From NCBI GenBank assembly GCA_035273325.1, contig DATEPF010000236.1, forward strand, positions 254-64,253: DNA of 64,000 nt, in the 5' to 3' direction. The translations under genes and the position numbers were made by a program. Source of the DNA: Pyrinomonadaceae bacterium. Its GTDB lineage: Bacteria > Acidobacteriota > Blastocatellia > Pyrinomonadales > Pyrinomonadaceae. Below, in pieces: positions 9,143 to 36,942 of this stretch (position 1 is its first letter; each line of letters begins with the position of its first letter). Below the pieces are notes generated by a model. That model was not told the DNA's origin. It ran no database searches and was given only the letters and a program-made list of their open reading frames with translations.

Positions 9143-9192
9143 AATTTCAGAAACCTATCTCTTGAGTTCTAGCGCTTCGGCACAGAGTTGAC

Positions 9193-11178: not shown

Positions 11179-11424
11179 ACCGTTTTGAGTCGTGATTTGC
11201 GAACACCTCCCAGCAGCGTCGAAGGGCTGAAGTCGTGCGTGATAGTAACATTGACCGAAGTGCCAGCGCTTGCTGACCGCCAGCCAAAATGAGTTCTTTT
11301 TTCCGATTCGCGCTCCAATGCTGGGGTCTTTACGCGGTGTAATTGCTTTGCAATTTCTTCACCGGCACGTTAACTTGACCTGCCGTAAATTGATTTCCAG
11401 CCACCTGACTCGGCAAACCCAAAC

Positions 11425-11895: not shown

Positions 11896-12066
11896 GGTAG
11901 CTCCGCCAGTTGATAAAATTGCTAGCCACCGCTTCTCAAATCTTTTAACGGTTAGGAAAAAGTTAAATTAACGGCTTCCGCAAACGAGCTTATCAAGGCG
12001 CGTCTACTCACGGCGCATCAATACCATCGAATTGCGGCATCACCGCAACATTTTTGCAAAAAAGAC

Positions 12067-16815: not shown

Positions 16816-17820
16816 TCAGACTATTTCTCTTGTCTCGGTCGGCTGGGCCGTCAGCAAATCGGCGCTAATCACCTGGGCATATTTCTTATAAAGAACAGGA
16901 ACACCGCGAACCGTCGGGTAGTACAGCGAGGACTTCACGGAATAATGTCCACCTGGAAAGGCCTGCAACTCGCCGCGCGATACAGGGCAAATCACCCGAG
17001 GATCGTTGCTGACACCCTCCTGGGTCTTTTCCAAAATGAATACGCCTGTATGGTTGTAGGGCGTGCCGTGGTTTCGGCAAACAAACGGTGGATGAAGCCG
17101 CACTCCCGGGAGATTGCGCACGAACGGGTAGATTCCCCGGACGTAATCCGACGCTCTCATTCGCAGTTTTTCGAGCAGCGACGCGCGCTGATAAAAGGGC
17201 TCGAACAGGACAACGTGCTTTCGGCTGACACGAATCATCTCGGTAATGGCATCTCTGAAAATGGTCGGCATCTGCTCCAGCGCGTGGTGGCTCACGACCA
17301 GGTCGAAGGAATTGTCCGGGAACGGAATGGCTGTGCCATCCGCCTGCACGACCGTGACCGGCATCTGTCGTGACTGAGCGAAACGTAGTCCGTGAAGAAG
17401 GCGATTTAACGTAATGTCGAGACCATAGAGATCGAGCGATGGCCCAAATTTATCGTAGACACTATGCATGAATGTCAGTTCACCGGCACCGACCTCCAAA
17501 ACGGATCGAAACTGTAGTTGCCCGAGAATGTCATTGCGCTCAGCGTAACAACGGCCGATCACCTCGCGCATAGAGAACTTGCGGACTTCGTCGTCAATGA
17601 TCGCGAATTTTTCGATATCGCGCGTGTGAACATAATCGATGGTACTTCCTGCGAACCAGGAATACTCGTTCTCGGATACGTCACGATCGCGTCGCTCACC
17701 GGTACCGCGCAAGTGGGCCAATCCATTGAGAATGATATTTGCCCGCATCTCAGCAAGGGTGCCAGGCGCAATCCTCATCAGCCGATACAGCCTTCCTCTA
17801 ATCCAATTCTTCGATCTCAT
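16816..17820 (-). CDS. Class I SAM-dependent methyltransferase with a C-terminal Trm112-like tail
   Basis: 'VLEVGAGELTF', 'LYGLDIT', 'FDLVVSHHALEQMP'. C-terminal 'VICPVSRGELQ..YYPTVRGVPVLY'. I prefer ATG 17820 because GAGGA lies about 10 nt upstream; the ORF-track TTG at 17850 is possible. Confidence 0.7.
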   Translation of the reverse strand: MRSKNWIRGRLYRLMRIAPGTLAEMRANIILNGLAHLRGTGERRDRDVSENEYSWFAGSTIDYVHTRDIEKFAIIDDEVRKFSMREVIGRCYAERNDILGQLQFRSVLEVGAGELTFMHSVYDKFGPSLDLYGLDITLNRLLHGLRFAQSRQMPVTVVQADGTAIPFPDNSFDLVVSHHALEQMPTIFRDAITEMIRVSRKHVVLFEPFYQRASLLEKLRMRASDYVRGIYPFVRNLPGVRLHPPFVCRNHGTPYNHTGVFILEKTQEGVSNDPRVICPVSRGELQAFPGGHYSVKSSLYYPTVRGVPVLYKKYAQVISADLLTAQPTETREIV

Positions 17821-18055
17821 CTTCTTTCCATCCTCTCTGGAGTTGCGCAATTCTGCTTGAAATGAGCACCAATGTAAAAAGCGGTCTTTTGCTAATTTGG
17901 ATTCTTATTCATGTCCATGTGAACTCCACCGCGCTGACCGTCGCGAGGCGGACTTGGCGTGAGACTAATCCCATCGAAGCCGGTGGTTTCACGGAAAGAC
18001 GCGAAGGCGTAAAGCATCGCGAAGGCAAATCAGGACTTTACTTGGTTGCGAGGGT

Positions 18056-18084
18056 TTGACCCCGCGACTTCGCGACACTAGACT
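18056..18084 (+). promoter_or_regulatory. Sigma70-like promoter TTGACC-N17-TAGACT upstream of wzm-1
   Basis: TTGACC at 18056-18061, a 17-nt spacer, TAGACT at 18079-18084. The ORF-track 'start' at 18056 is the TTG of this -35 box. Confidence 0.45.
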
Positions 18085-18172
18085 GACTTTTTATCAATAT
18101 CGCCTCGCCCCGCCGGTTACATCCCGGTCAATCGAGGCCACGCCAAATCTTTGCCAGCTTTCGCGATTCCGA

Positions 18173-19069
18173 ATGAGCACCCAAAGCAATCGCCTATCGA
18201 TAGATTCAGCCACAACAACCGCAACAGCGCAGGTAGCTGACGAATCGCGACGCCGGCCTTTCGTGATTATCGAGGCTAGCCGCGGGTGGCGCGCGATCAA
18301 TCTTCGAGAACTCTGGGTCTATCGCGAACTGCTTTACTTGCTCATTTGGCGAGACATTAAGGTGCGCTACAAGCAGACATTGCTGGGTGTTGCGTGGGTG
18401 GTCCTTCAGCCGGTCTTGACTACGCTCGTTTTCACAATCTTCCTCGGTGTTCTGCTACGCGTTCCGACCAATGGTCCGCCGTATCTGTTGTTCGTTTACA
18501 GCGGCCTGCTAATGTGGATCTTTTTCAGCTCTGCTGTTACCACCAGCAGTATCAGCCTTGTGAGCAATGCGCAATTGCTGACGAAAGTTTACTTTCCCCG
18601 GTCGTTGCTGCCTGTGGCAGCAGTCTCGGCCCGATTGTTGGATTTCGCGATCGGTTTTGTGATTCTGATTCTGCTGATGTTTTATTACGGCGTTCGCCCG
18701 ACGTCGAGCATTTTCCTCTTGCCGGTGCTGATTGCTCTGATGACCCTGCTGACGCTGGCGGTCGGCATGATTGCGTCAGCTTTAAACGTAAAGTACCGGG
18801 ACGTCGGTGTGTTGATTCCAGTGCTGCTGCATTTGTGGATGTACGCCTCTCCGGTCGTGTATCCGGCGAGTTTGGTGCCCGGCCGCTGGCGTCAACTTTA
18901 CGAACTCAATCCCATGGCTGGTCTAATCGGTGGGTTTCGAACTGCCGTTTTAGGCGGCCCGATCAATTGGTCGTCCCTGGCCGTCTCCGCTGCGGTCGTT
19001 GTTGGTCTGGTGATTATCGCGTCGATCCAATTCAGACGCATGGAAAACCAGTTTGCCGACGTCATCTGA
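18173..19069 (+). CDS. wzm: ABC-2 type polysaccharide export permease (copy 1)
   Basis: 'LRELWVYRELLYLLIWRDIKVRYKQTLLGVAWVVLQP', six predicted TM segments, and 'LNVKYRDVG'. ATG 18173 lies downstream of the predicted promoter. Confidence 0.85.
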   Translation: MSTQSNRLSIDSATTTATAQVADESRRRPFVIIEASRGWRAINLRELWVYRELLYLLIWRDIKVRYKQTLLGVAWVVLQPVLTTLVFTIFLGVLLRVPTNGPPYLLFVYSGLLMWIFFSSAVTTSSISLVSNAQLLTKVYFPRSLLPVAAVSARLLDFAIGFVILILLMFYYGVRPTSSIFLLPVLIALMTLLTLAVGMIASALNVKYRDVGVLIPVLLHLWMYASPVVYPASLVPGRWRQLYELNPMAGLIGGFRTAVLGGPINWSSLAVSAAVVVGLVIIASIQFRRMENQFADVI

Positions 19070-20343
19070 TGCGTAACCCGATGATTAAGATCGAGAGTGT
19101 CTCCAAGCAATACCGGCTTGGCACAAACCAGCTGGCCTATCAAACCTTGCGCGACCGTCTCGCCGACTTCACCAGCTTTCGACTCAATCGCCGGGGCAAC
19201 GGAAACGGAAATGGGAATGACAACACCATCTGGGCGTTACGTGACATCAACTTTGAAGTTGCCAAAGGTGAAGTGTTGGGAATTATCGGCCGCAATGGCG
19301 CCGGAAAATCTACCTTACTGAAAATTCTTTCGCGTATTACTGAACCGACTACAGGCCGGATCGAATTGTACGGCCGAGTGGGCAGCCTGCTGGAAGTAGG
19401 AACCGGTTTTCACCCGGAACTGACCGGCCGCGAAAACATCTTCCTGAACGGCGTCATCATGGGAATGAAGCGCCGCGAGTTGGCTCGAAAATTCGATGAG
19501 ATTGTGGCGTTTGCAGAGATTAGCAAATTCATCGACACGCCGGTGAAGCGTTATAGCAGCGGAATGTACGTCCGTTTGGCCTTTGCGGTGGCCGCGCATT
19601 TAGAACCTGAGATTTTGATCGTTGATGAGGTGCTGGCGGTCGGTGATGACCTGTTCCAAAAAAAGTGCCTGGGCAAAATGGCGACAATTGCGGGAGAAGG
19701 AAGGACCGTCATCTTCGTGTCACACAATATGCCCGCGGTAACCAATCTCTGTCCCCGAGCGATTCTGCTGGATCAGGGCGGCGTGGTTCGCGATGGTAAC
19801 TCAGCAGATGTCACGAGTTACTACCTGAGTTCCGGAGGGGCGAGCGACGCGGACCGTGAGTGGAACGACATCTCGACGGCGCCCGGCGATGAAATTGTCC
19901 GCCTTCGGCGAGTCTCTGTCGTGGACGAAAATGGGGACGTCTGTCCGTCGATCGACATTCGTAAGAAAGTAGGAATTCGACTCGAGTATGAAATCCTGCA
20001 CGATGGTCGCGTGCTGCTTCCCGGCTTCAGTATTACGACCGAGGCGGGCCAACTCGCGTTTTACGCCGGTGACTCGGAGCCGGATTGGCAGAATTCTCCA
20101 CGTCCGAAAGGTCGATACGTCAGTACCGGCTGGATACCGGGTAACTTCCTAAATGCAGGAACCATGATTGTCGGTGTTACAGTCAGCCAGCCTCGCCCTA
20201 CACATAAGCACGTGCATGAACAAGGGGTGTTGTCGTTTCAAGTAATTGACCGAATGGGGCCGGGTACCGCCCGCGGTAACTATCCGGGCCGCCATTTCGC
20301 AGGTGCGGTCAGACCGCTGTTGCAGTGGAAAACGGATTCCTGA
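19069..20343 (+). CDS. wzt: ABC polysaccharide export ATPase with a C-terminal (Wzt_C-like) extension (copy 1)
   Basis: TGATG overlap with wzm. Walker A 'GRNGAGKSTLL', signature 'YSSGMYVRLAF', Walker B 'ILIVDEVLAVGD'. A beta-rich extension of about 170 aa follows the NBD. Confidence 0.85.
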   Translation: MRNPMIKIESVSKQYRLGTNQLAYQTLRDRLADFTSFRLNRRGNGNGNGNDNTIWALRDINFEVAKGEVLGIIGRNGAGKSTLLKILSRITEPTTGRIELYGRVGSLLEVGTGFHPELTGRENIFLNGVIMGMKRRELARKFDEIVAFAEISKFIDTPVKRYSSGMYVRLAFAVAAHLEPEILIVDEVLAVGDDLFQKKCLGKMATIAGEGRTVIFVSHNMPAVTNLCPRAILLDQGGVVRDGNSADVTSYYLSSGGASDADREWNDISTAPGDEIVRLRRVSVVDENGDVCPSIDIRKKVGIRLEYEILHDGRVLLPGFSITTEAGQLAFYAGDSEPDWQNSPRPKGRYVSTGWIPGNFLNAGTMIVGVTVSQPRPTHKHVHEQGVLSFQVIDRMGPGTARGNYPGRHFAGAVRPLLQWKTDS

Positions 20344-20497
20344 CGCGAAAAAGAAGGGAGTACGGAACGGTGTAAGATGCCGGAGTATTTTGATGGGCGT
20401 CTTCGAACTTGAAGCTTGATCGCATCGCTCCTTGGTTCGCAATGATACTATCTCGTTTGTCGTTCTATCATTCTCAAAAATATCCGAAGGTTGGTAT

Positions 20498-21268
20498 ATG
20501 AAGGCAGTGATTCTAGCCGGAGGCTTGGGCACACGTCTGGCGGAAGAAACCGAAGTGAAGCCCAAACCCACCGTCGAGATCGGGGGCTATCCAATCCTCT
20601 GGCATATCATGAAACACTATGCTCACTATGGGATTGGAGAGTTCTTCATCGCGCTGGGTTACAGGGGAGAAGTCATTAAGCGGTACTTCCTTGACTATTA
20701 CACTTGCAACGGCAACCTGACGATCGATTTTTCAAACGGCGAAGTCATAACCAGAAAGAAAGATTGCGAGGACTGGATTGTGCACCTCGAAGATACGGGT
20801 GAGGACACTAACACAGGCGGGCGCGTCAAACGTCTGGAGCCGTATCTTAAGGACGGAACGTTCATGGTCACGTACGGCGACGGCGTCTGCAACGTCGATC
20901 TTAAAAAACTGGCTGAGTTTCACAAAGCACACGGACGGATTGCGACAATTACCGCCGTCCGGCCACCGGCCCGCTTCGGTGGTCTGATCTTTGACGGAGA
21001 CGTCGTGAAGGAATTCACCGAAAAGCCGCAAATCGGTGAGGGCTGGATCAATGGTGGGTTCCTGGTTTTTGAGCCGGCTGTTTTTGAATATTTAGCCGGC
21101 GACGACAGCAGTCTGGAAGCCGACGCGTTGGAACGATTGGCGGCCGCGGGACAACTCGCAGCTTATCGCCACGAAGATTTTTGGCAGTGCATGGATACGC
21201 TTCGCGACAAGCGATTTCTTGAATCTCTTTGGCAGCAGAAACAGGCCCCTTGGAAAGTATGGCAATAG
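20498..21268 (+). CDS. rfbF: Glucose-1-phosphate cytidylyltransferase
   Basis: '[64 protein letters not shown]' and '[14 protein letters not shown]'. Confidence 0.9.
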
Positions 21269-22260
21269 AATTTTGGCGCGACCGGCCCACGTTTGTGACA
21301 GGCGCCACGGGTCTCGTGGGCGGCTGGCTGGTCAAGAATCTTATCGCCGCCGGGGCGGATGTTGTTTGCCTGGTGCGCGACTGGGTACCACAGTCTGAAT
21401 TCTCGCGCACGGGCCTTTCCGAAAAAGTAAAAGTCGTCCGCGGCGACGTGCAGGATCAGGCGCTGCTTGAGCGCGTGTTGGGCGAGTACGAAGTCGACAC
21501 GGTCATTCATCTCGCCGCACAGACACTCGTACCCATCGCGAATCGGAATCCGGCGTCAACCTTTGCGTCGAACATCGGGGGCACGTGGTCATTGCTGGAG
21601 GCGAGCCGTCGCAGCCCGCTGGTGAAGCAAATTGTACTGGCTTCGTCGGATAAGGCGTATGGCGATCATGACCGGTTGCCTTATACGGAAGACGCGCCGC
21701 TGCAGGGACGACACCCGTACGACGTAAGCAAGTCATGCGCGGATCTGATCGCCCAGTCATATGCCACCACCTTTGGTCTGCCGGTGGTCATCACTCGTTG
21801 TGGAAACTTCTTCGGCGGCGGCGATCTGAACTGGAATCGTCTGATTCCGGGCACCATTCGATCTATTTTGCGCGGGCAGCGGCCGGTGATTCGGTCAGAC
21901 GGCCAACACATCCGGGATTACTTCTATGTCGAAGACGGCGCGGCTGTTTACATGCTTCTGGCTGAGAAGCTCGCCGCCAATCCAGACCTGAAAGGGCAGG
22001 CGTTTAATTTTTCGAACGAGACTCAGGTAACAGTTCTTGAAATTGTCCAGAAATTACTTTCCCAGATGAATTCCGATTTGGAACCTGACATCCGTGACGA
22101 AGCGGCCAATGAAATCCGACATCAGTATCTCAGCGCAAGCAAGGCCCGCAAATACTTCAACTGGACGCCACGATTTTCTCTCGACGAAGGATTACAGGAA
22201 ACAATCAAGTGGTACAAAGCACTTTTGGAAGAGCCTCTTGATAAATCCGCCGCAAGATGA
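21259..22260 (+). CDS. rfbG: CDP-glucose 4,6-dehydratase
   Basis: '[24 protein letters not shown]' and '[13 protein letters not shown]' (YxxxK). It overlaps the rfbF stop by 10 nt. Confidence 0.75.
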
Positions 22261-23489
22261 ATACGCCTCAAGTCCGCTGTCGCTCGTGTGACCAGCCCAA
22301 CCTTACGCCCATCCTTTCGCTCGGTGAGACTCCGTTGGCAAATGCGCTGCTGAGTCGCGAGCAACTTAAAGACATCGAGGAAAAGTTTCCCCTTGAGCTC
22401 GTGCTATGTCTCAACTGCTCGCTGGTACAAATCACTGAGACGGTGCCGCCCGAAAAGCTCTTTCGCGAGTATTTTTATCTGTCCTCTTTTTCCGAAACTC
22501 TGCTGCGGCATTCAAAGGAAAATGTAGAGCAACTAATTCTTTGGCGGCGGCTGGGTCCGGACAGTTTGGTGATTGAGATCGCGAGTAACGATGGCTACCT
22601 GCTTCAGTACTATAAACAGGCGGGGGTCGCGGTACTGGGCATTGAACCGGCGCGGAACATTGCCGTCACCGCTGAAGAACGCGGTATCCCGACCTTGTGT
22701 GAGTTCTTCGATAACCAGTTGGCCGAGAATTTGAAAGCGCAGGGAAAAAGCGCAGACGTCCTTCACGCGAATAATGTCCTGGCGCACGTGAGCGACCTAA
22801 ACGGTTTCGTGCGCGGAGTGCGTGCTCTGCTGAAAGAATCCGGCATGGCGGTGATCGAGGTGCCTTACGTCAAGGACATGATCGATCGGCGCGAGTTCGA
22901 CACCATCTACCACGAGCACCTCTGCTATTTTTCGCTGACGGCGCTGCAACATCTCTTTCAGCGACACGGCCTCTCAATCGCCGACGTGAAGCGACTGCCG
23001 ATTCACGGTGGCACGTTGCGGATCTTCGCGGTGCACGAGAGCGCCGCCGAACGCGAATCGGGAAATGTCGCCGCAATGTTGGCTGACGAAGTTGCCTGGG
23101 CGAGCGACCGCGCCTTTTATCTCGGCTTTGGCCAGAAAGTCGAATCATTGCGCCAGGATCTTTTGAGTTTGATAAATCGACTGAAGAGTGATGACAAGCG
23201 AATTGCGGTCTATGGTGCGTCTGCTAAAGGCACGACGTTAATGAGTTATTTCGGACTGAACCGCGCGCATCTCGACTTTGTCGTCGATCGAAGCACAGTG
23301 AAGCAAGGCCGCTACACGCCGGGCACGCATCTGCCAATTCACGCGCCCGATGTGTTGCTGAAAGAGATGCCGGATTACGTTCTGCTGCTGACCTGGAATT
23401 TCGCCGACGAGATTCTCGAGCAACAGGTGGAATACCGAAAGTTGGGGGGACGTTTTATTATTCCAATCCCCGAAGTGAAAATTGTCTGA
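22257..23489 (+). CDS. Sugar-nucleotide C-methyltransferase (zinc-ribbon + SAM-MTase + C-methyltransferase C-terminal domain; TylC3/NovU-like architecture)
   Basis: '[34 protein letters not shown]', '[12 protein letters not shown]', '[20 protein letters not shown]'. Confidence 0.8.
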
Positions 23490-23507
23490 TGAGCCACGGC
23501 TGTCGAT

Positions 23508-24035
23508 ATGCTCTTTGTTGAAACGAAATTAGAAGGCGCCTATCTGGTTCAGTTGGAGCCGTTCGAAGATGAGCGCGGATTTTTCGCTTTGAGCTGGTCT
23601 GAGAAGGAGTTTGCCGCACGCGGGCTCGAGTCGCGCCTTGCCGAGTGCAATGTTTCCTTTAATCGGAAAAAGGGAACGCTCCGAGGCATGCATTATCAGG
23701 AGGCGCCGCATGGCCAGGTTAAGTTAGTGCGCTGCACGAGAGGCGCGATTTTTGACGTCATAATTGATCTTCGGGCATCATCACCCACCTTCAAACAATG
23801 GGTGGGCGCTGAGCTCTCGGCGGAAAACCGTCACGCGCTGTACATACCGAGGGACTTCGCTCATGGATTTCAAACGCTGACGGACGATTCAGAAATCCTC
23901 TACCAAGTGTCGGATCCTTTTGTGCCTGCGAGTGGCCGGGGCGTTCGTTGGAACGATCCGGCATTTGGGATCACCTGGCCCGATAGTGACCGCCTCATGT
24001 CCCAGAGGGATAACGAGTATCCCGATTTCCATTGA
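23508..24035 (+). CDS. RmlC-like cupin, NDP-4-keto-6-deoxyhexose 3,5- (or 3- or 5-) epimerase
   Basis: 'FEDERGFFALSW', 'NVSFNRKKGTLRGMHYQ', 'KLVRCTRGAIFDVIIDLR', 'FAHGFQTL'. Confidence 0.85.
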   Translation: MLFVETKLEGAYLVQLEPFEDERGFFALSWSEKEFAARGLESRLAECNVSFNRKKGTLRGMHYQEAPHGQVKLVRCTRGAIFDVIIDLRASSPTFKQWVGAELSAENRHALYIPRDFAHGFQTLTDDSEILYQVSDPFVPASGRGVRWNDPAFGITWPDSDRLMSQRDNEYPDFH

Positions 24036-24049
24036 GAGGCGTTTTTGCG

Positions 24050-25126
24050 ATGAGCTCAGAAATCGTTTTCGATAGCGCCGGCGTGTCAGAAGCATTGGCC
24101 GCGGCGGGCAAGGACGAAGATCTCCGGACGACGTTCTTCGAGGCTTTGCGGCGCGCGGAGGCGGCTTCCGCAGATCCCGCCGTTTTTCGAGAGCAGGTCC
24201 GATGGCCGTTGATACTTGCGTCGTTAAGCGCGGCCAGGACTCACAGAATTCAAATGGGAAACGGTTTGATTTTTGAAGTGGGTGCGGACAGCCGCATTGA
24301 GCGCGCGTTGCTGTTGAGCAGTGAAGAACATCCGGATCACGTGTGGGAGCCGCAAACCACAAAATTGCTTACGGCGCTGGCCCGCGAAACGTCGAATGTC
24401 ATCGTGGGCGGCGCCTACATAGGCGATCAGGTGCTGTTTCTTGCGCGCGCAACGGCCGAACGCAAACCGCCGGGCGTGATTCATGCTTTCGAGCCTATGA
24501 AAACTTCGTTTGATCGTCTGGTTAGCAATCTGAGCCTCAACCACATTACGAATGTTGTGTCTAAGCGCCTGGGACTCTGGGACGAGCCGGCGGTGGCGCT
24601 CGCGATCGAGGGTCACCTCGGCCTGGCTTCTTCCAAACCGGTCGCCGAAAGCGGCAGCGCTGATGAACGAATCGAATCGACCTCGATCGATGAGTATGCG
24701 CGCTCGCAGCAGCTTCCGTCCGTCGGCCTCATCATGTTGGACACGGAAGGCGGCGAAGAGAAAGCGCTGCTCGGAGCGCGCGCGACAATCGAGGAGCACA
24801 AACCGAACATTGTTGTGGAAGTGCACCGGAATTTTGTCGACTGGACAGACGGTTTGGAGCACACTTCGTTAATCCGGTTCTTAACGTCGCGCGGGTATTC
24901 GGCTTTCGCCATCCGCGATTTCCACGATAACTATCCGATGGCCGGCCGGCCAATTGAGATCGTGCCGGTGGATCGAGTGTATCTGGAAGGACCACCGCAC
25001 GGATTTAACGTACTCGCCACTGCGGATGGCGATTTGATCACCAGGCACGGGTTACGAATCGTCGAGGACGTCAGTCCGAAGTTGCTGCTTCACAAAGACC
25101 CGGCCCTCCATCATCCCAAGTTTTGA
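24050..25126 (+). CDS. FkbM-family methyltransferase with an N-terminal extension
   Basis: 'VGGAYIGDQVLFLA', 'IHAFEPMKTSFDRLVSNL', 'LIMLDTEGGEEKALLGA'. ATG 24050 is preferred; TTG 24032 is possible. Confidence 0.7.
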   Translation: MSSEIVFDSAGVSEALAAAGKDEDLRTTFFEALRRAEAASADPAVFREQVRWPLILASLSAARTHRIQMGNGLIFEVGADSRIERALLLSSEEHPDHVWEPQTTKLLTALARETSNVIVGGAYIGDQVLFLARATAERKPPGVIHAFEPMKTSFDRLVSNLSLNHITNVVSKRLGLWDEPAVALAIEGHLGLASSKPVAESGSADERIESTSIDEYARSQQLPSVGLIMLDTEGGEEKALLGARATIEEHKPNIVVEVHRNFVDWTDGLEHTSLIRFLTSRGYSAFAIRDFHDNYPMAGRPIEIVPVDRVYLEGPPHGFNVLATADGDLITRHGLRIVEDVSPKLLLHKDPALHHPKF

Positions 25127-25136
25127 GCTTCAATCA

Positions 25137-25958
25137 ATGATTACCGTTCTCGGCGCTTCTGGATTTATCGGATCTCACCTGGTCAGGCGACTGACCGAGC
25201 TGGGAATTCGCCACGACGCGCCGTCTCGGGATGAAAACCGGCCGCGCCAGAACTGCGGACATATAATTTACTGCATCGGATTAACGGCTGACTTCCGATC
25301 TCGTCCCTTTGACACCGTGCAGGCGCATGTCTGTAAACTGATGCAGGTTTTAAGAGATTGGGAGTTTGATTCGCTTCTATACCTGTCTTCGACTCGTTTA
25401 TATGGAAATGAGCTGACGACGGCCAACGAGGAAGATGGGTTTCGATTCAACCCATCGAATCCCAGCGATTTATACAATCTGTCAAAGGCGATGGGAGAAT
25501 CGATCACGCTTTCGTGCGGCCGGAAAACACGCGTGGCCAGATTGTCTAATATTTATGGTGAGGATTTGAACTCAGATAACTTTCTGCCGTCGGTTATCGG
25601 CGAAGCGCTGGCCAAACGTAAGGTAGTGCTGCGCACGACAGGTGACTCAGCGAAGGACTATCTAAGCATCAGCGTCGCGGTACAAGGCCTAATCGACATC
25701 GCGACGCGAGGCAGGGAACGTATTTATAATCTGGCCAGCGGCGTGAATGTTTCAAACGGGGAGCTGGTTCAGGAGTTGAGCAGCCTCACCGGCTGCGAGG
25801 TTGAATTCCTTCCGGACGCGAAAACAATTAACTTTCCAGTGATCGATATCAGCCGCATGCAAACGGAATTTGGTTTTCAACCGTCCGATGTGCTTAGCGA
25901 CCTGGAAGAGCTTGTAAATTTCTATCGGCAACACGGAGGCTCAGGTGATCTCAATTGA
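25137..25958 (+). CDS. NAD(P)-dependent SDR epimerase/reductase (candidate NDP-4-ketohexose reductase)
   Basis: 'MITVLGASGFIGSHLVRRL' and 'YNLSK' (YxxxK). Confidence 0.7.
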   Translation: MITVLGASGFIGSHLVRRLTELGIRHDAPSRDENRPRQNCGHIIYCIGLTADFRSRPFDTVQAHVCKLMQVLRDWEFDSLLYLSSTRLYGNELTTANEEDGFRFNPSNPSDLYNLSKAMGESITLSCGRKTRVARLSNIYGEDLNSDNFLPSVIGEALAKRKVVLRTTGDSAKDYLSISVAVQGLIDIATRGRERIYNLASGVNVSNGELVQELSSLTGCEVEFLPDAKTINFPVIDISRMQTEFGFQPSDVLSDLEELVNFYRQHGGSGDLN

Positions 25959-26709
25959 TCTCGAACAGGGCCTGGTTACGGTCGAAGAAAACGGGAGCCG
26001 TCTTCAGCACGCGATTGGCAGCGCCGAAGCGTTCGAGGTGCTGTCGAACGCGTGGCTTCGAAGCGGCTGGGACAACAAGCATGTCTATAGTTTCACCTGG
26101 TTCGGCCGGCCAATAATCCAATTGCCGGAAGACATGGTGCGGTTGCAGGAAGTTATCTACGCGCTCAAACCCGACGTAATTATTGAGACGGGCATCGCGC
26201 ACGGCGGGTCTTTAGTTTTTTATGCAAGCCTTTGCAAGGCCATGGGGCGAGGGCGCGTCGTGGGCATCGACATCGAAATCCGGCCGCACAACCGCCAGGC
26301 TATTGAAGAGCACCCGCTGTTCCCGCTGATCACATTGATCGAAGGCAGCTCGATAGATCCAGAAGTTGTAAGTCGCGTCCGGGCGCAAATACGGCCCGGC
26401 GAGACCGTGCTGGTGTTGTTGGATTCATGCCACACCAAGCAGCATGTTCTGGATGAGTTAAATGCCTACGCGCCGCTGGTGACGGCGGGCTCATATATCG
26501 TGGCGATGGATGGCATCATGGAACAGGTCTCCGGCGCGCCGCGCACGGAAGCGAATTGGACATGGAACAATCCCCGAGCGGCAGCGCTCGAGTTCGTGGC
26601 GGCCCATCCGGAATTTGTGATTGACGACCCGCAATTCAAGTTTAATGAAGGTAATATCTCAAAAGCGGTGACCTATTGGCCCAGCGGTTACATTAAACGC
26701 GTCGGTTGA
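25945..26709 (+). CDS. CmcI / cephalosporin-hydroxylase-family methyltransferase (sugar O-methyltransferase candidate)
   Basis: 'WFGRPIIQLPEDMVRLQEVIYALKPDVIIETGIAHGGSLVFYASL'. GTG start with GGAGG 5 nt upstream. Confidence 0.75.
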   Translation: MISIDLEQGLVTVEENGSRLQHAIGSAEAFEVLSNAWLRSGWDNKHVYSFTWFGRPIIQLPEDMVRLQEVIYALKPDVIIETGIAHGGSLVFYASLCKAMGRGRVVGIDIEIRPHNRQAIEEHPLFPLITLIEGSSIDPEVVSRVRAQIRPGETVLVLLDSCHTKQHVLDELNAYAPLVTAGSYIVAMDGIMEQVSGAPRTEANWTWNNPRAAALEFVAAHPEFVIDDPQFKFNEGNISKAVTYWPSGYIKRVG

Positions 26710-26721
26710 TAATCCGACAGA

Positions 26722-27678
26722 GTGCGACGAACAGTTTTGGAAGAAACACCACTAGTGAGCATAGGTTTGCCGGTCTATAACGGCGAACGATATTTGCGCC
26801 GGGCCCTTGACTGTTTGCTGGCCCAGGACTATCCCCATTTTGAGTTGCTAATTTCCGACAACGCTTCCACCGATCAGACCAGGCAGATCTGTGAAGAGTA
26901 CGGCGCCAGGGATGCGCGGATAAACTTCAAGGTCAACCAATCAAACGCCGGCATCATTGCCAATTTCCAACTCGTGCTCGATCGCGCGCGCGGCAAGTAC
27001 TTTATGTGGGCTGCGCATGACGATACGTGGGACAGGAGATTCGTGGGCGTGATGGTCCACGAGCTGGAAACTCATCCCGGCGCCGCCGTAGCCATGAGCG
27101 GCGTGGAACGCGTCCATGAAAACGGCACGCCGCACGACGTAGTGCGACACGCAGACCGCACAAATCCAAACCGTATGAACATGTTGCAGCTGGCGTTGGC
27201 GCTCGCTGAGGGCAGCCCGCATCATTTGTTCATCTATGGTTTGTTCCGCACCGAGTTCTTGCGACAGGCGTTTCACAATTTTCCGCGGGTGATCGCGGCG
27301 GACCGCTTAATGATGATTCAGGCAGCGCTGAGCGCTCGATTCCGCTATGTCGATGCGGTCCTGCACACGCGATACATCAACGAAGAGCCGATTCCGGTGC
27401 GTTACCAAAATGACGAGTTCGGCCAGGCTTGGCACGATCGACATCGGCACCTCAAGAAAGATTTGGCTCTTGGACCATATCTCTTCCGATCGCGGATGAT
27501 TCCGTGGCAACGCAAGTTTTGGATTCCGCTGATCGTTATCTGGCCGCTGTTGAAGCGGCTCTACCATGGCCGTTATCGATTTTTATGTTGGCTTGCGGGA
27601 AAGATCATGGGTCGCGGTGGCCGGCGAAAGAATATAGCTCGTTATCTCAGACGTTTAGTTCATATGGGTTCCAGATAG
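26722..27678 (+). CDS. Family 2 glycosyltransferase
   Basis: 'VSIGLPVYNGERYLRRALDCLLAQDYPHFELLISDNASTDQT' and 'AHDD'. Confidence 0.8.
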   Translation: MRRTVLEETPLVSIGLPVYNGERYLRRALDCLLAQDYPHFELLISDNASTDQTRQICEEYGARDARINFKVNQSNAGIIANFQLVLDRARGKYFMWAAHDDTWDRRFVGVMVHELETHPGAAVAMSGVERVHENGTPHDVVRHADRTNPNRMNMLQLALALAEGSPHHLFIYGLFRTEFLRQAFHNFPRVIAADRLMMIQAALSARFRYVDAVLHTRYINEEPIPVRYQNDEFGQAWHDRHRHLKKDLALGPYLFRSRMIPWQRKFWIPLIVIWPLLKRLYHGRYRFLCWLAGKIMGRGGRRKNIARYLRRLVHMGSR

Positions 27679-27687
27679 GGAGATCCG

Positions 27688-28746
27688 ATGGAGCGCGCGT
27701 TACAAATCGAATCAACGCTAATCAACGATGCCGGCGACTGCTATGTGATAGCTGAAATTGGCCACAACCATCAGGGGAATATTGAAACCGCGAAGGAGTT
27801 GTTTCGCGCGGCCAAAGAATCCGGCGCGAACGCGGTTAAATTGCAGAAGCGAGACAATCGCTTATTGTACACGCGCGAGATGTTCAATAAGCCGTACGAG
27901 AACGAGAACAGTTTCGGGGCGACGTACGGTGAGCACCGTGAGTTCCTGGAGTTCGGCAAGGAAGAGTATCAGGAGCTACAAAAGTTCGCGGCGGAACTGG
28001 GGTTAGCTTTTTTTGCGACGGCTTTTGATTTTCACAGCGCCGATTTTCTGGCTGAGTTGAACACGCCCGCATTCAAGATTGCTTCCGGAGATTTGCGAAA
28101 CATTCCGTTGCTGAAGCATGTCGCGGGCTATCAAAAACCAGTGATCGTCAGCACAGGCGGAGGTACGATTGACGACGTGCAGCGTGCCTACGACTCGTTC
28201 ATGCCCATTAATCCGCAACTGGCCATCCTGCAATGCACCGCCGGTTACCCATGTGCCTTCGAGGAAATGAATCTGCGCGTCATCTCAACGTTTCGCGAGC
28301 GCTTTCCCGATATCGTGATAGGTTTGTCATCCCATGACAGCGGTATTGCCATGGCCGTCGCCGCGTATATTTTGGGCGCGCGGATTGTGGAAAAACATTT
28401 TACCCTCAATCGCGCAATGAAGGGCACCGATCATGCCTTCTCGCTCGAGCGTGGAGGCTTGCGACGCGTGGTCCGGGATTTGAAACGCGCTCGCGTGGCC
28501 TTAGGAGACGGGGTAAAAAGAACGTACCCGAGCGAAGTCGCGCCGTTGTTGAAGATGGGAAAGAAACTCGTGGCGGCGTCAGATCTGCCCGCGAATCATG
28601 TCATCCGGCGCGAGGACGTCGCGATCAAGTCGCCAAGCGACGGCCTTCCGCCCTTCGAATTGGATCACGTCGTCGGCAAAGTGACCCGAAGGGCGTTGAA
28701 AGAAGACGAGAACATTAATTTCGAAGACGTGGACGGTAACAGTTGA
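27688..28746 (+). CDS. NeuB-family PEP-condensing ulosonic (nonulosonic) acid synthase with C-terminal SAF domain
   Basis: 'CYVIAEIGHNHQGNIETAKELFRAAKESGANAVKLQKR', 'AFKIASGDLRNIPLL', 'PVIVSTGG', 'VEKHFTLNRAMKGTDHAFSL'. RBS AGGGAG. Confidence 0.85.
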   Translation: MERALQIESTLINDAGDCYVIAEIGHNHQGNIETAKELFRAAKESGANAVKLQKRDNRLLYTREMFNKPYENENSFGATYGEHREFLEFGKEEYQELQKFAAELGLAFFATAFDFHSADFLAELNTPAFKIASGDLRNIPLLKHVAGYQKPVIVSTGGGTIDDVQRAYDSFMPINPQLAILQCTAGYPCAFEEMNLRVISTFRERFPDIVIGLSSHDSGIAMAVAAYILGARIVEKHFTLNRAMKGTDHAFSLERGGLRRVVRDLKRARVALGDGVKRTYPSEVAPLLKMGKKLVAASDLPANHVIRREDVAIKSPSDGLPPFELDHVVGKVTRRALKEDENINFEDVDGNS

Positions 28747-29267
28747 CCGATAACCCTCGCGTGCTTGACGCTGCATCGCTAGCCAGGATCATTCGCACCA
28801 TCCGGCTGATCGCTTTTGATTTTGACGGCGTGTTCACAGACAACTCGGTTTACGTCTTTGAGGACGGTCGCGAGGCTGTCAGGTGTACGCGTAGTGACGG
28901 CATGGGCCTGGCGAAGCTTACCGGGCTGGGGATCGCCACCGTCGTCATCTCAACGGAACCGAACCCCGTAGTCTCCGCGCGCAGTCGCAAACTTAAGATC
29001 GATTGCATTCAGGATTGTGCGGACAAACGCGCGGCCATCGATCAAGTTGCCGGCAACCTGGGTCTCACGCTTGAGCAGGTTGCGTTCGTGGGAAACGACA
29101 TAAACGATCTGCCCTGTCTAACGGCCGTCGGCCTTCCGATCGTTGTCGGCGACGCTCATCCTGACGTTGTGCAGTGGGCTGCATATCAAACGAAGAAGTT
29201 TGGTGGCTACGGCGCGGTGCGGGAAGTGTGCGATTTGTTTGAAGCTGCACTACGGGGCGAGAGTTAG
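28743..29267 (+). CDS. HAD-IIIA KdsC-type ulosonate-phosphate phosphatase (TTG start, 4-nt overlap)
   Basis: 'IRLIAFDFDGVFTDNSVYV..GREAVRCTRSDGMGL', 'VAFVGNDINDLPCLTAVGLPIVVGDAHP'. Confidence 0.8.
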   Translation: MTDNPRVLDAASLARIIRTIRLIAFDFDGVFTDNSVYVFEDGREAVRCTRSDGMGLAKLTGLGIATVVISTEPNPVVSARSRKLKIDCIQDCADKRAAIDQVAGNLGLTLEQVAFVGNDINDLPCLTAVGLPIVVGDAHPDVVQWAAYQTKKFGGYGAVREVCDLFEAALRGES

Positions 29268-30068
29268 ATGCTGAAGAACCTCTTCGACGTTGAAAACAAG
29301 ATAGTGATCGTCACCGGCGGTTGGGGGCAACTCGGCCGCGAGTTTACCAGTGCACTAAGCGCTCGCGGCGCGCGCGTAGCAGTATTCGACATCGTAGCCG
29401 GCGAGACACCTGATTTCGAGTTTGGAGAGCGGATTCTTTCGATCGAGGCTGACGTAACGAGCCGAGATTCGATCGAAGCAGGACTGAAACAAGTTACCTC
29501 AGCGTGGGGCGTGCCGCACGCGCTCATCAACAACGCCGGCCTCGATTCACCGCCAAACGCTCCCATCGAAGAAACAGGTCCCTTTGAGTCTTACCCCGAG
29601 AGTTCGTGGGACAAAGTTATGGAAGTGAACTCAAAGGGCGTCTTTCTATGTTGTCAGGTTATCGGCGGCGCGATGGCAAACGCCGGCCGCGGTTCGATTG
29701 TGAATATCAACTCGATCTACGGATTGATATCACCGGACCAGCGCATTTATGAGTATCGACGCACTCAAGGCGATCACTTCTTTAAACCGGTGGCCTATGC
29801 CGCTTCGAAATCTTCGTTGCTTAATTTGACTCGTTATTTGGCCACCTACTGGGCCGCAAAAAACGTTCGGGTCAACAGTTTGACGCTGGCTGGCGTCTTT
29901 AACAATCAAGATTCCCAGTTCCTTAAAAGCTATACTTCGCGCGTTCCACTCGGCCGAATGGCCGAACCCGGGGATTACGCAGGAGCGATTATTTTTATGG
30001 TCTCGGAGGCCTCGTCCTACATGACGGGTGCAAACATGGTGATTGACGGCGGTTGGACGGCGTGGTGA
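29268..30068 (+). CDS. Short-chain dehydrogenase/reductase
   Basis: 'KIVIVTGGWGQLGREF', 'NNAG', 'YAASKSSLLNLTRYLA'. The start abuts the previous stop. Confidence 0.85.
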   Translation: MLKNLFDVENKIVIVTGGWGQLGREFTSALSARGARVAVFDIVAGETPDFEFGERILSIEADVTSRDSIEAGLKQVTSAWGVPHALINNAGLDSPPNAPIEETGPFESYPESSWDKVMEVNSKGVFLCCQVIGGAMANAGRGSIVNINSIYGLISPDQRIYEYRRTQGDHFFKPVAYAASKSSLLNLTRYLATYWAAKNVRVNSLTLAGVFNNQDSQFLKSYTSRVPLGRMAEPGDYAGAIIFMVSEASSYMTGANMVIDGGWTAW

Positions 30069-30074
30069 AGCGTG

Positions 30075-31553
30075 ATGAGCTTGAGAACCCTTTTAGTGCC
30101 GGCGGAAATTCTGAATTGGATCGAGGGAGAGGAGCACGCGGCGATCTCAGGTGAGTTGTTCGACAAGCTCAACCCTGCCGACGGCACGTTACTGACCCGA
30201 AGCGCGCGCTCGCGAGGTGAAGACGTGCAGCATGCGGTGGCGGCCGCGAAAGCCGCGCAACCGGCATGGGCCGCCATACCGCCGGTAAAACGCGGTGAAT
30301 TGCTACTGGATATCGCGATGTCGTTGAAAGCGCAGCGCGAACCCATGGCCCGGATCGTCGCGGCCGAGACGGGCAAGTCCTATCGCGATGCTCTCGGCGA
30401 AACTGACGGCGCGGTGGCCCAGGGTGTTTTCATGGCGGGTGAGGGTCAGAGGCTTTACGGTCGCACGACGACTTCGGCGGTGCCGCACAAGCATGCAATG
30501 ACTATTCGGCAGCCGATGGGTGTAGCCGGATTAATCATCGCGGCCAACACGCCGATCGCCAATGTCGCTTGGAAGGTTTTCCCGGCTTTGATCTGCGGCA
30601 ACGCCGTAGTTCTGAAGGCGGCTGAAGACACTCCGGCAACGGCGTGGGCATTCAGCAGGATTGCCCACGACGCCGGCTTGCCGGCCGGTGTTTTAAACGT
30701 AATAAATGGGTTCGGCGAGGAAGCGGGCGAACCGCTGGTGCAACATCCGGATGTAAGCGTTATCAGCTTTACCGGTTCAACTGCTGCCGGCCGGCGCATC
30801 GCTGTCGAAGCCGGCAGGCGGCTGGCAAAGATTTCCCTGGAGCTGGGCGGCAAAAACGCTTTAGTCGTTTGTGATGACGCCGATCTGAACAACGCGCTGA
30901 AGTGGATTCTGTTGTCCGCCTTCAGCAACGCCGGACAACGCTGCGCTTCAGGAAGCCGCATTATCATTTTCGATCAAATTTACGAACAGGTTCGTCAGAT
31001 GCTTATCGAAGGATGCGAGAAACTGCGCGTCGGCACGGGCGATGATGCTGATTTCGGACCGGTCATCAACGAGAAGCAATTGCAAAATATGTTGGCTGCC
31101 ATCGAGCGAGCCCGCGATGCGGGGGCCACCGTCTTGACGGGTGGACACAGACTGACAACTGATGAGCATCGGAGTGGTTACTATTTGGCGCCGACTTTGA
31201 TTGAAAACGCCGCGCCTCAAGCCGAGATTTCCGTCAACGAATTGTTTGGACCGGTTGCTTGTCTTTATCGGGTAAAGAATTTCGCCGAAGGTCTGAGGCT
31301 GGTAAACGATTCGCCTTACGGGCTGACGGCGTGTATTCATACGCGTAACTTACATCGGGCAGTTGAGTTTACGCAGAAGGTCCAGAGCGGCGTGGCGGTC
31401 GTGAATGCGGGAACCTACGGAAGCGAGCCTCACATGCCCTTCGGTGGCCTTAAGCAATCTGGAAACGGCTCACGAGAGCCGGGGACCGAAGCGCTCGACA
31501 TTTATTCAAATCTGAAGGACGTCTACATAAGCGTTGAGCCGGAACAGGTTTAG
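30075..31553 (+). CDS. NAD(P)-dependent aldehyde dehydrogenase
   Basis: 'VISFTGSTAAGRRI', 'ELGGKNALVVCDDADL', 'FSNAGQRCASGSRIII', 'PFGGLKQSGNG'. Confidence 0.9.
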   Translation: MSLRTLLVPAEILNWIEGEEHAAISGELFDKLNPADGTLLTRSARSRGEDVQHAVAAAKAAQPAWAAIPPVKRGELLLDIAMSLKAQREPMARIVAAETGKSYRDALGETDGAVAQGVFMAGEGQRLYGRTTTSAVPHKHAMTIRQPMGVAGLIIAANTPIANVAWKVFPALICGNAVVLKAAEDTPATAWAFSRIAHDAGLPAGVLNVINGFGEEAGEPLVQHPDVSVISFTGSTAAGRRIAVEAGRRLAKISLELGGKNALVVCDDADLNNALKWILLSAFSNAGQRCASGSRIIIFDQIYEQVRQMLIEGCEKLRVGTGDDADFGPVINEKQLQNMLAAIERARDAGATVLTGGHRLTTDEHRSGYYLAPTLIENAAPQAEISVNELFGPVACLYRVKNFAEGLRLVNDSPYGLTACIHTRNLHRAVEFTQKVQSGVAVVNAGTYGSEPHMPFGGLKQSGNGSREPGTEALDIYSNLKDVYISVEPEQV

Positions 31554-31562
31554 GTAAACTTT

Positions 31563-32327
31563 TTGGAAGGCGACTCAGGAATTCCAAGTGTGATTGCTTT
31601 GATCCCCGCACGCTCGGGTTCAAAGCGTGTCCAACAGAAAAATGTGCGTGTCCTTGGCGATCATCCTGTGATTGCCTATACGATCGCCGCCGCCCAGGAA
31701 AGCGGAATCTTCGCGAAAGTACTGGTCTCTACTGATTCTGAAGAATATGCGGCAATCGCGCGACATTACGGAGCGGACGTCCCCTTCCTGCGGCCGCCTG
31801 AGGTTTCCGGCGATCTTTCCCCGGACATCGAATGGGTTGACTTCACATTGAACAAGCTTCGTGAACAAGGCTCTAAATTTGGCTGTTTCAGCATTCTGCG
31901 ACCAACCAGTCCGTTCAGACAGGCGGCTACCATTCGGCGCGCGTGGAACCAATTTCTCAGCGACGAGGCAGTGGATTCACTGCGGGCGGTCGAGAAATGC
32001 AAGCAGCACCCCGGCAAGATGTGGGTCGTGCGGCAAAACAGAATGACTCCCTTGCTGCCGTTAACACCAGCCGAGATCCCCTGGCATAGCAGACAGTACC
32101 AATCGCTCCCCGAGATTTTTGTACAAAACGCCAGCCTGGAGATCGCTTGGTCCCGAGTCGTCTTCGAAAGTCGTTCGATTTCCGGCACGGTACTCATGCC
32201 GTTTTTTACTGAAGGTTACGAAGGATTCGACATCAACGATCCAATCGATTGGCAACGCGCTCAGGACCTGGTTGAAAGTGGCGACGCCCATTTGCCTCAC
32301 GTCTTTCAATCTCGGTATCCTGCTTAA
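31563..32327 (+). CDS. CMP-ulosonic acid synthetase (acylneuraminate cytidylyltransferase family)
   Basis: 'IALIPARSGSKRVQQKNVRVLGDHPVIAYTI' and 'ILRPTSPFR'. The start is TTG 31563 or GTG 31590. Confidence 0.8.
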   Translation: MEGDSGIPSVIALIPARSGSKRVQQKNVRVLGDHPVIAYTIAAAQESGIFAKVLVSTDSEEYAAIARHYGADVPFLRPPEVSGDLSPDIEWVDFTLNKLREQGSKFGCFSILRPTSPFRQAATIRRAWNQFLSDEAVDSLRAVEKCKQHPGKMWVVRQNRMTPLLPLTPAEIPWHSRQYQSLPEIFVQNASLEIAWSRVVFESRSISGTVLMPFFTEGYEGFDINDPIDWQRAQDLVESGDAHLPHVFQSRYPA

Positions 32328-32338
32328 TTCAAAAACTG

Positions 32339-34255: not shown

Positions 34256-34259
34256 CATT

Positions 34260-35978: not shown

Positions 35979-36012
35979 TTTACCGGCAGTTACTGACTCT
36001 TCACGCTAAGGC

Positions 36013-36942
36013 ATGTTCCTGTTTCACCCAATCAAATCGAGTAAGGCAATCCTCAGGTCGTTCGATTTCCGCTTGCAACGTATCGAGTGGCGCCTGGAGT
36101 CCGTTCAAGAAGCGCTCGGAAGGATCGAGTTGCGACACCTGAGTGCGCGAGACAGTAACAACCTGACTGACCACCAGTTTCGCGTGTTTTCGCAATGGGG
36201 CGAGGACGGAATGATTCAATTCTTGTTGAGACACGTAGCCCCTGAGAACAAGGTATTCGTCGAATTCGGAGCGGATGCCTACAACTATGAATCAAACACG
36301 CGCTTTCTGCTGACCAATGACAATTGGAGAGGCTTGATAATCGATAGCAGTGAGCGCGCCATTGCAGAGTTAAAGAGAAGTCGTGCCTGGGAGCTGCATG
36401 ATCTGACGGCAGTTCAGGCTTTCATCACCAGAGAAAACATTAACGAACTCCTGACACAACACGGAATCAACGGCGAAATCGGTCTGCTCTCGATTGATAT
36501 CGATGGAAATGATTATTGGGTTTGGCAGGCCATCAATGTGATACAACCGGTAATCGTGATCGCTGAATACAATCACCGCTTTGGCCCGGATCGGGCCGTA
36601 ACTATTCCATACGACGAAAAATTTGATCGTAAGGAAGCACATCCGTCCAAACTTTATTTTGGCGCCTCGTTGCAAGCTCTCTGTCAGCTTGGCAAAGCGA
36701 AAGGTTACGCATTTGTCGGATGTAACGGAGTGAACGCGTTCTTTGTGCGCGCCGACAAAAGACCGCAGGTGCTTAAGGAGCTGACCCCTGCGGAAGGATT
36801 TGTTCAGGGCAAATTCGGCGAGCCGTTCCCGCGAAACGGTCAAACAGTCAAACTTAGCCCGGAAGAGGAATCCGCGTTCCTTCAAAGTTTGGATCTGCCG
36901 TTGGTGGATGTATCAAACCAGGAATTCAAAAAGCCAAACTGA
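36013..36942 (+). CDS. Hypothetical protein, FkbM-like SAM-MTase-fold candidate
   Basis: 'FSQWGEDGMIQFLLRHVAPENKVFVEFGADAYNYESNTRFLL..WRGLIID' resembles the sQ.GED...........fvefGA......SNT motif of small FkbM-like proteins. Confidence 0.35.
   Translation: MFLFHPIKSSKAILRSFDFRLQRIEWRLESVQEALGRIELRHLSARDSNNLTDHQFRVFSQWGEDGMIQFLLRHVAPENKVFVEFGADAYNYESNTRFLLTNDNWRGLIIDSSERAIAELKRSRAWELHDLTAVQAFITRENINELLTQHGINGEIGLLSIDIDGNDYWVWQAINVIQPVIVIAEYNHRFGPDRAVTIPYDEKFDRKEAHPSKLYFGASLQALCQLGKAKGYAFVGCNGVNAFFVRADKRPQVLKELTPAEGFVQGKFGEPFPRNGQTVKLSPEEESAFLQSLDLPLVDVSNQEFKKPN

Follow-up and report, generated by a model that had tools for sequence, protein, structure and literature searches.

A putative biosynthetic gene block for a CDP-linked, methyl-branched and O-methylated 6-deoxy-L-hexose adjoining a Wzm/Wzt exporter in a Pyrinomonadaceae bacterium

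The 64-kb window analysed here, on contig C236 of the metagenome-assembled genome (MAG, 87% complete) of a Pyrinomonadaceae bacterium, contains a block of eight co-directional genes that either overlap or lie no more than 18 nucleotides (nt) apart (successive spacings −40, −4, +18, −4, +10, −14 and +12 nt), directly 3′ of wzm and wzt for an ATP-binding cassette (ABC) glycan exporter (Table 1). An earlier interpretation based on the DNA letters, referred to here as the sequence-only reading, described the eight genes as a contiguous, coupled set for the synthesis of a branched deoxysugar; all eight were recovered in place on the plus strand, with family matches that agree with that description, and the spacings bear out the coupling. 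Families were called by Pfam and NCBIfam profile searches of the window proteins, and related structures were identified by sequence searches of the PDB. The sugar block is followed by a ulosonic-acid block (NeuB, KdsC, aldehyde dehydrogenase, CMP-transferase and transketolase), and the 64-kb window as a whole is one large glycan region that also carries rmlB/rmlD, a Wzc-like kinase, gmd/fcl-like genes, and several glycosyltransferases of families 2 (GT2) and 4 (GT4).

Table 1. Sugar block, adjoining exporter genes and other features of the window referred to in the text (SAM, S-adenosylmethionine; SDR, short-chain dehydrogenase/reductase; aa, amino acids).
Feature	Position	Strand	Family match	Remark
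rfbF/ddhA, glucose-1-phosphate cytidylyltransferase	20498–21268	+	TIGR02623 equivalog, 360.5 bits	ATG at 20498
rfbG/ddhB-like, CDP-glucose 4,6-dehydratase	21229–22260	+	Best match TIGR02622, below cut-off	Alternative ATG 21259
TylC3/TcaB9-type NDP-4-keto-hexose C-methyltransferase	22257–23489	+	PF08421, PF13489, PF08484	
RmlC-type epimerase	23508–24035	+	TIGR01221	
FkbM-family SAM methyltransferase	24032–25126	+	PF05050, TIGR01444	Probable true start ATG 24050
Short RmlD-like extended SDR	25137–25958	+	PF01370, PF04321	273 aa
CmcI/rhamnosyl-O-methyltransferase family enzyme	25945–26709	+	PF04989, 250.6 bits	
GT2 glycosyltransferase	26722–27678	+	PF00535, 91.9 bits	
wzm, ABC-2 permease of glycan exporter	18056–19069	+	PF01061 ABC2_membrane, 68.6 bits	
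wzt, exporter ATPase with Wzt_C-like C-terminal domain	19069–20343	+	PF00005, weak PF14524 Wzt_C	
DegT	5044–6192			
rmlD and rmlB	9305–11178	−	Equivalogs	
Second wzm/wzt pair	42638–44891			

The RfbF match (cut-off 300.25 bits) extended over profile positions 1–255 of 255. The best PDB matches of the dehydratase were 1rkx and 1wvg, the CDP-glucose dehydratases of Yersinia and Salmonella, and its SSDKAYG and YDVSK segments aligned with TSDKCYD and YSNSK of these structures, a signature of the CDP type (S-D-K with YxxxK) and not the T-D-E of dTDP enzymes. The three domains of the C-methyltransferase (PF08421, 77.2 bits; SAM methyltransferase domain, 63.7 bits; PF08484, 184 bits) all scored over their cut-offs, and its PDB matches were MtmC (3e-91), TcaB9 (2e-78) and KijD1, all of which are 3-C-methyltransferases. 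It keeps the four zinc cysteines (CxxC...CxxC), and its YFY, NNVLAH and IYHEH segments align with Y76, N177/H181 and Y222/E224/H225 of TcaB9/MtmC. The RmlC-like epimerase reached 179.8 bits (cut-off 155.75), and alignment of RGMHYQ, QVKLVRC, ILYQV and a C-terminal RD with RmlC structures revealed that the catalytic His, Lys, Tyr and Asp are kept. The SDR has an RmlD-like shortened Rossmann fold with GxxGxxG at residues 6–12, Ser84/85 and Y113xxxK117, and is 46% identical to a homologue on pSymB of Sinorhizobium meliloti and 52% identical to one in a Pseudomonadales MAG, in which a CmcI homologue with 58% identity was also found. PDB searches with the two remaining methyltransferases gave distant matches only, 2py6 (E = 0.007) for FkbM and one at 4e-7 for CmcI, both silent on the acceptor. 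The GT2 protein has no transmembrane segment and a basic amphipathic C-terminus, and its gene adjoins CmcI also in the related loci L097 (69% identical) and L098 (see below), which makes it a candidate transferase for the CDP-sugar.

These families suggest a pathway in which RfbF would convert glucose 1-phosphate and CTP to CDP-glucose (step 1), the RfbG-like enzyme would form CDP-4-keto-6-deoxy-D-glucose (step 2), and the C-methyltransferase would add a methyl group from SAM beside the keto group, most likely at C-3 (step 3). The RmlC-like enzyme would then epimerise C-5 (step 4), the short SDR would reduce the 4-keto group (step 5), the CmcI-type and FkbM-type enzymes would methylate O-2 and O-4, respectively (step 6), and the GT2 would transfer the sugar (step 7). 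We consider it reasonably probable (roughly 0.62) that the block serves the synthesis of a CDP-activated, methyl-branched, O-methylated 6-deoxy-L-hexose for a Wzm/Wzt-exported surface glycan, the sugar being handed to the adjacent GT2. The predicted product is CDP-6-deoxy-3-C-methyl-2,4-di-O-methyl-L-hexose, a vinelose- or nogalose-like sugar that is probably not vinelose itself and whose talo or manno configuration is not readable from the sequence. The epimerase would act at C-5 only, giving the L-series, because C-3 would be quaternary after methylation. The site of C-methylation, this restriction to C-5, the stereochemical course of the reduction, where and when O-methylation takes place, and the acceptor glycan are the parts of the pathway that we infer. 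At the family level, the enzyme logic of the sequence-only reading, which had predicted a CDP-linked 6-deoxy, C-methyl, O-methyl hexose, holds. Its view that this is not a 3,6-dideoxyhexose route, for lack of E1 and E3, also stands: neither the window nor the 87%-complete assembly yielded an RfbH (E1) equivalog (best NF011936 match 151 bits, cut-off 423), and the DegT of the window (174.7 bits) also stays below that cut-off.

Steps 1–3 are established on CDP substrates for homologues from Bacillus cereus and are carried over here by analogy. The Cyt-Deh-Cmt-Red operon of B. cereus ATCC 14579 (Li et al. 2017, J Biol Chem 292:7636) makes CDP-cereose and CDP-cillose (CDP-3-C-methyl-6-deoxy-gulose and -allose), as stated in two papers that cite this work (PMC7725333, PMC9095892). 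In the former, the pathway is given as an experimentally defined one from glucose 1-phosphate and is predicted in 81 of 12,939 genomes, and the supplement lists Q81B31 as an experimentally characterised nucleotide-sugar C-methyltransferase (PMC7725333). Likewise, SMb21416-18 of S. meliloti were listed in 2013 as ddhA, ddhB and an "NDP-hexose 3-C-methyltransferase" (PMC4053727). The statement of the sequence-only reading that no genes had been assigned for a CDP-linked C-methyl deoxysugar of this type therefore needs correction, as going by these papers the B. cereus operon was already assigned and the S. meliloti cassette annotated. The window resembles the B. cereus operon in the order of cytidylyltransferase, dehydratase and TylC3-type C-methyltransferase (20498–23489), followed by an SDR, and in the CDP carrier; the order rfbF, rfbG, C-methyltransferase is also that of the B. 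cereus plasmid pRML01. It differs in that it adds an RmlC-type epimerase and two O-methyltransferases and has a different, short RmlD-like reductase, in that its product is predicted to be L-series and O-methylated rather than D-series, and in that the sugar would enter a Wzm/Wzt-exported polymer instead of a spore glycoprotein. What is new here is the variant with epimerase, FkbM, CmcI and short reductase together with the map of module swaps described below; the kind of pathway (CDP-C-methyl-6-deoxyhexose) was already known, the cassette is widespread, and this copy is neither rare nor a source of a new enzyme family.

When species-representative genomes were scanned with the SMb21418-type C-methyltransferase of S. 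meliloti, at least 600 matches were obtained; for the 80 loci that were retained, genes within 10 kb of the C-methyltransferase were counted. These 80 loci span more than 10 phyla, including Pseudomonadota, Cyanobacteriota, Bacteroidota, Planctomycetota, Verrucomicrobiota, Nitrospirota and Acidobacteriota. Across many phyla, bacteria of soil and water commonly carry the cassette. A neighbouring rfbF was present in 68 of the 80 loci, an RmlC homologue in 67, a window-type rfbG in 50, and CmcI in 19. Among 31 relatives, 11 have a PF08484 gene, and five of these (G004, G009, G015, G019 and G025) carry the window-type cassette. The order rfbF, rfbG, C-methyltransferase, rmlC, FkbM, SDR, CmcI is repeated in L097 and L101 (another family of the class) and in part in L105 and L106. 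As identical gene order recurs in relatives and other phyla, the arrangement is far beyond chance. In L097, whose C-methyltransferase is 72% identical to that of the window, the entire stretch from wzm (an ABC2_membrane gene in the same position) to transketolase is syntenic with the window, which places the sugar block in a surface glycan system that depends on an ABC transporter.

The roles of the tailoring genes were deduced from a near relative, L098 (a JGI soil metagenome contig, 7786–11953), in which rfbF, rfbG, the C-methyltransferase, CmcI and GT2 are 94%, 92%, 91.5%, 84% and 63% identical to those of the window. There, a DegT aminotransferase, a class I methyltransferase and a formyltransferase replace FkbM and the SDR, CmcI and GT2 are kept, and two frameshifts have reduced rmlC to a remnant. 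This swap implies that the C-methyltransferase product would be a 4-keto sugar open to either reduction or amination, which points to the short SDR as the putative 4-ketoreductase. The retention of CmcI in both the reductive and the amino variant suggests that the position it methylates is independent of the chemistry at C-4, most simply O-2, and we infer that CmcI is the 2-O-methyltransferase. From the amino variant, a 4-formamido-3-C-methyl-2-O-methyl sugar would be expected, and the swap predicts serotype-like diversification within one genus. Such a sugar would resemble mycobacterial kansosamine.

A second exchange concerns the slot before the short SDR (after rmlC or the C-methyltransferase): in all 12 loci with the short SDR, it is filled by exactly one of two types of gene, FkbM or a hexapeptide acyltransferase. 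FkbM occupies it in eight (the window, L097, L101, L105, L106, L026, L027 and L049) and the acyltransferase in four (L131 from the Pseudomonadales MAG, L016 from S. meliloti pSymB, L024 and L032), and both states occur within one tight Caulobacterales C-methyltransferase clade. In 1967/1968 Okuda, Suzuki and Suzuki (J Biol Chem) reportedly described CDP-vinelose (6-deoxy-3-C-methyl-2-O-methyl-L-talose) and its 4-O-(O-methylglycolyl) ester from Azotobacter vinelandii. FkbM is most likely the 4-O-methyltransferase, because the acyltransferase in the same slot fits the 4-O-acylated form that vinelose is said to take. To our knowledge, no genes have been tied experimentally to vinelose. The literature search retrieved no publication on vinelose and none on an Azotobacter CDP-glucose dehydratase, and no Azotobacter-named match occurred among the 80 loci or among the matches listed for three protein searches (with the window and the Thiobacillus-clade C-methyltransferases and the S. 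meliloti short SDR).

The resemblance to vinelose extends to the CDP carrier, the 6-deoxy group, the C-methyl branch, the L-series and O-methylation, all of which are predicted from the window genes. At the family level, all six enzyme types that vinelose calls for (cytidylyltransferase, 4,6-dehydratase, 3-C-methyltransferase, 5-epimerase, 4-ketoreductase and 2-O-methyltransferase) are represented, their functions being deduced from the family. The acylated form fits the seven-gene acyltransferase cassette of the Pseudomonadales MAG and S. meliloti pSymB, whereas the window has FkbM in place of the acyltransferase, and thus a second O-methyltransferase beyond what vinelose needs, so that a 2,4-di-O-methyl sugar is more likely. 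As a tentative generalisation, which we would not yet rely on, the six-gene core (rfbF, rfbG, C-methyltransferase, RmlC-like, short SDR and CmcI) may be the genetic basis of vinelose-type CDP sugars, with the slot setting the decoration at O-4: the acyltransferase would lead to the acylated Azotobacter vinelose, FkbM to a 2,4-di-O-methyl nogalose-like sugar, and the aminotransferase/formyltransferase module to an N-formyl-kansosamine-like sugar in the sister strain. If this is true, Acidobacteria would vary a surface antigen by exchanging tailoring modules on one branched-sugar scaffold. The swaps (FkbM for acyltransferase, reductase for aminotransferase at C-4) map enzymes to the positions they decorate, which is useful for glyco-engineering, and an assignment of the product would connect CDP-vinelose, known since the 1960s, with genes and would provide an annotation for thousands of genes that currently carry the label "class I SAM-dependent methyltransferase" or "NAD-dependent epimerase".

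Two genus-mates show further variants of the cassette. L105 (G004:C15) has an extra class I methyltransferase open reading frame (ORF) in the approximately 800 nt between FkbM and the SDR and is without CmcI; L106 (G015:C161) lacks rmlC between the C-methyltransferase and FkbM and has a gap of approximately 840 nt between FkbM and the SDR. In the Pseudomonadales MAG (GCA_032251455.1), the seven-gene acyltransferase cassette (L131:1–5786) lies behind two large tetratricopeptide repeat/GT41 (O-GlcNAc-transferase-like) genes, a delivery context that differs from the Wzm/Wzt genes of the window.

Several observations weigh against the proposed pathway, and they are considered here together with the alternatives on which they bear. 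The pathway in this version is predicted from gene content. The dehydratase reached 218.7 bits against the TIGR02622 cut-off of 278.45, although this remained its top family (dTDP-glucose dehydratase, 182.8 bits). The CmcI family includes methylases of lipid-attached sugars, such as mycobacterial Rv2959c, so that O-methylation at the nucleotide level is an assumption, and the placing of FkbM at O-4 is based on the logic of the gene slot and on the 4-O-acyl CDP-vinelose mentioned above. One or both O-methyltransferases might thus act on the glycan after transfer, for example to form a chain-terminating cap read by the C-terminal domain of Wzt, as with WbdD in Escherichia coli O8/O9a. The position of the block directly after wzm/wzt, the PF14524 (Wzt_C) match of wzt, weak as it is (20.5 bits, under the 30.4-bit cut-off), the action of some CmcI-family members on lipid-linked rhamnose, and the use of methylated caps as the usual terminators in ABC-transporter-dependent O-antigen pathways all fit this explanation. 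We nevertheless consider it rather improbable, though worth keeping in mind, as the FkbM and CmcI genes lie inside the sugar operon with reading frames that overlap or nearly abut, accompany the sugar genes even where wzt is absent (L131, pSymB and the Caulobacterales loci), and in the case of FkbM alternate with an acyltransferase in a fixed slot. CDP-vinelose, moreover, was reportedly isolated already O-methylated as the nucleotide sugar. The more specific idea that the branched sugar is itself the cap read by the carbohydrate-binding domain of Wzt was unsupported, since the C-terminal half of Wzt is about equally diverged from L097, with the same sugar, and from L098, with the different, amino sugar.

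The role of the epimerase is the next point. No strong RmlC other than that of the block occurs in the assembly, and the rmlD and rmlB equivalogs, which lie 9–11 kb upstream of the block, have no adjoining rmlA or rmlC; for these reasons the block epimerase may also serve dTDP-rhamnose synthesis. Alternatively, rmlA and rmlC for rhamnose may lie in the unassembled 13% of the genome. Carried further, the RmlC-like gene would be functionally part of dTDP-L-rhamnose synthesis, and the branched sugar would be D-series like the cereose and cillose of B. cereus. Besides its being the sole RmlC equivalog in the assembly, this explanation draws on the higher score of the window RmlC against dTDP RmlC structures (150 bits) than against the CDP epimerase WbcA (102 bits), on the relative G017, in which a 56%-identical rmlC stands divergently beside rmlB-rmlD, and on the cassette in L106, which is without rmlC. 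An attempt to tell cassette from canonical RmlC by a tree failed, as cassette and non-cassette copies were intermixed with no well-supported clade around the window copy. Against these stand the 67 of 80 loci across phyla in which rmlC adjoins the C-methyltransferase, the genome G025, in which a cassette copy (180 bits) exists separately from a canonical RmlC (248 bits), and the decay of the cassette rmlC upon replacement of the reductive branch in L098, which is expected only if rmlC served the cassette. As the missing rmlA and rmlC are perhaps merely unassembled in a genome of this completeness, we regard a D-series product with a rhamnose-dedicated RmlC as unlikely, and retain an L-series CDP-sugar as the predicted product.

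As for the C-methyltransferase, methylation at C-3 of CDP-4-keto-6-deoxyhexose is most likely, an assignment made because of the B. cereus precedent only, and the phylogeny does not place the window enzyme with that precedent. The window C-methyltransferase is 42.5% identical to the B. cereus plasmid homologue, and in a FastTree phylogeny of 100 sequences, a biased sample, it fell in a nine-member clade (support 97) with acidobacterial relatives and the second pSymB copy, and the B. cereus-type, SMb21418-type and cyanobacterial enzymes made up an 82-member sister clade (support 100). The PF08421/PF08484 family also holds 5-C-methyltransferases such as NovU, so that C-3 is not proven, and C-3 and C-5 both neighbour the 4-keto group. 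The product might therefore be a 5-C-methyl (noviose-type, gem-dimethyl) sugar, with the RmlC-like enzyme as a 3-epimerase, as for NovU and NovW in novobiocin; NovW was a good PDB match for the epimerase (1.3e-32), and the separate clade of the window enzyme would be compatible with another site. There is, in our view, only a slim chance of this, given that the closest solved homologues MtmC, TcaB9 and KijD1 and the sole characterised CDP-dependent member all methylate C-3, and that the window clade and the B. cereus-type clade share downstream enzymes (rmlC, FkbM or LbH, SDR and CmcI), which argues for the same chemistry. That the product is exactly CDP-vinelose is very unlikely, for although all six vinelose enzyme types are present and the operon type rfbF, rfbG, C-methyltransferase, rmlC, acyltransferase, SDR, CmcI exists in the Pseudomonadales MAG, the extra FkbM, which takes the place of the acyltransferase found in the S. 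meliloti and Pseudomonadales operons, makes a further-methylated derivative more likely, and the SDR sequence does not tell talo from manno.

The pSymB copy closest to the window lies at 692.7–695.8 kb of pSymB in S. meliloti 1021 (L011:10116–13206) and encodes a C-methyltransferase 54% identical to that of the window. In strain 1021, a frameshift or stop interrupts the rfbF homologue upstream of it; SMb21416-18, which is intact, forms a different locus.

Antibiotics are the best-known source of branched methylated deoxysugars, whose genetics in ordinary bacterial surface glycans is almost uncharted apart from the four-gene B. cereus operon. The proposed CDP pathway shares the C-methyltransferase fold and catalytic residues with the dTDP 3-C-methyl pathways (TylC3/EryBIII with TylK/EryBVII for mycarose, MtmC, TcaB9 for tetronitrose, KijD1, and nogalose, which is 6-deoxy-3-C-methyl-tri-O-methyl-L-mannose), as well as the logic of a 4-keto intermediate, C-methylation, 5-epimerisation, 4-reduction and O-methylation. 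It differs from them in the CDP carrier, the absence of 2-deoxygenation, the use of CmcI and FkbM O-methyltransferases, and its placement in a primary-metabolism surface glycan of Acidobacteriota. The route proposed for virenose in Coxiella burnetii, as presented in PMC3539893 and PMC3204966, has an analogous 4,6-dehydratase, C-methyltransferase and reductase but has GDP-mannose as its carrier, whereas the carrier in the window is CDP.

In the exporter genes, the program-listed wzt ORF of 649 aa (18394–20343) overlaps wzm and is too long at its 5′ end; translation probably begins at ATG 19069 or 19081, which would shorten Wzt to approximately 425 aa, and the protein can be aligned from MRNPMIKIE onwards to the 435-aa Wzt proteins found in L097 and L098. 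Between wzt and rfbF, a radical-SAM gene is present in L097 (2744–3799) and L098 (3510–4742), where the window has a gap of 154 nt only (20344–20497). Promoter and terminator scans of 17800–36500 gave counts equal to those of shuffled sequence. The second wzm/wzt pair is followed by methyltransferase, GT2, formyltransferase and WbqC-like genes, so that two or more ABC-exported glycans are encoded in the region.

A second C-methyl sugar locus, L099, is located on another contig of the same genome (G000:C126:1–14000). It is of the GDP type, with the order Wzt; Gmd (TIGR01472, 500.7 bits); C-methyltransferase; Gmd-like reductase; hexapeptide transferase; methyltransferase; GT2; and a NeuB/NeuC/NeuD/CMP-transferase nonulosonate set. 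Its C-methyltransferase is 32% identical to that of the window, and the locus parallels the window in combining an exporter, a branched sugar, a GT2 and an ulosonic acid, and it resembles the proposed virenose/evalose route.

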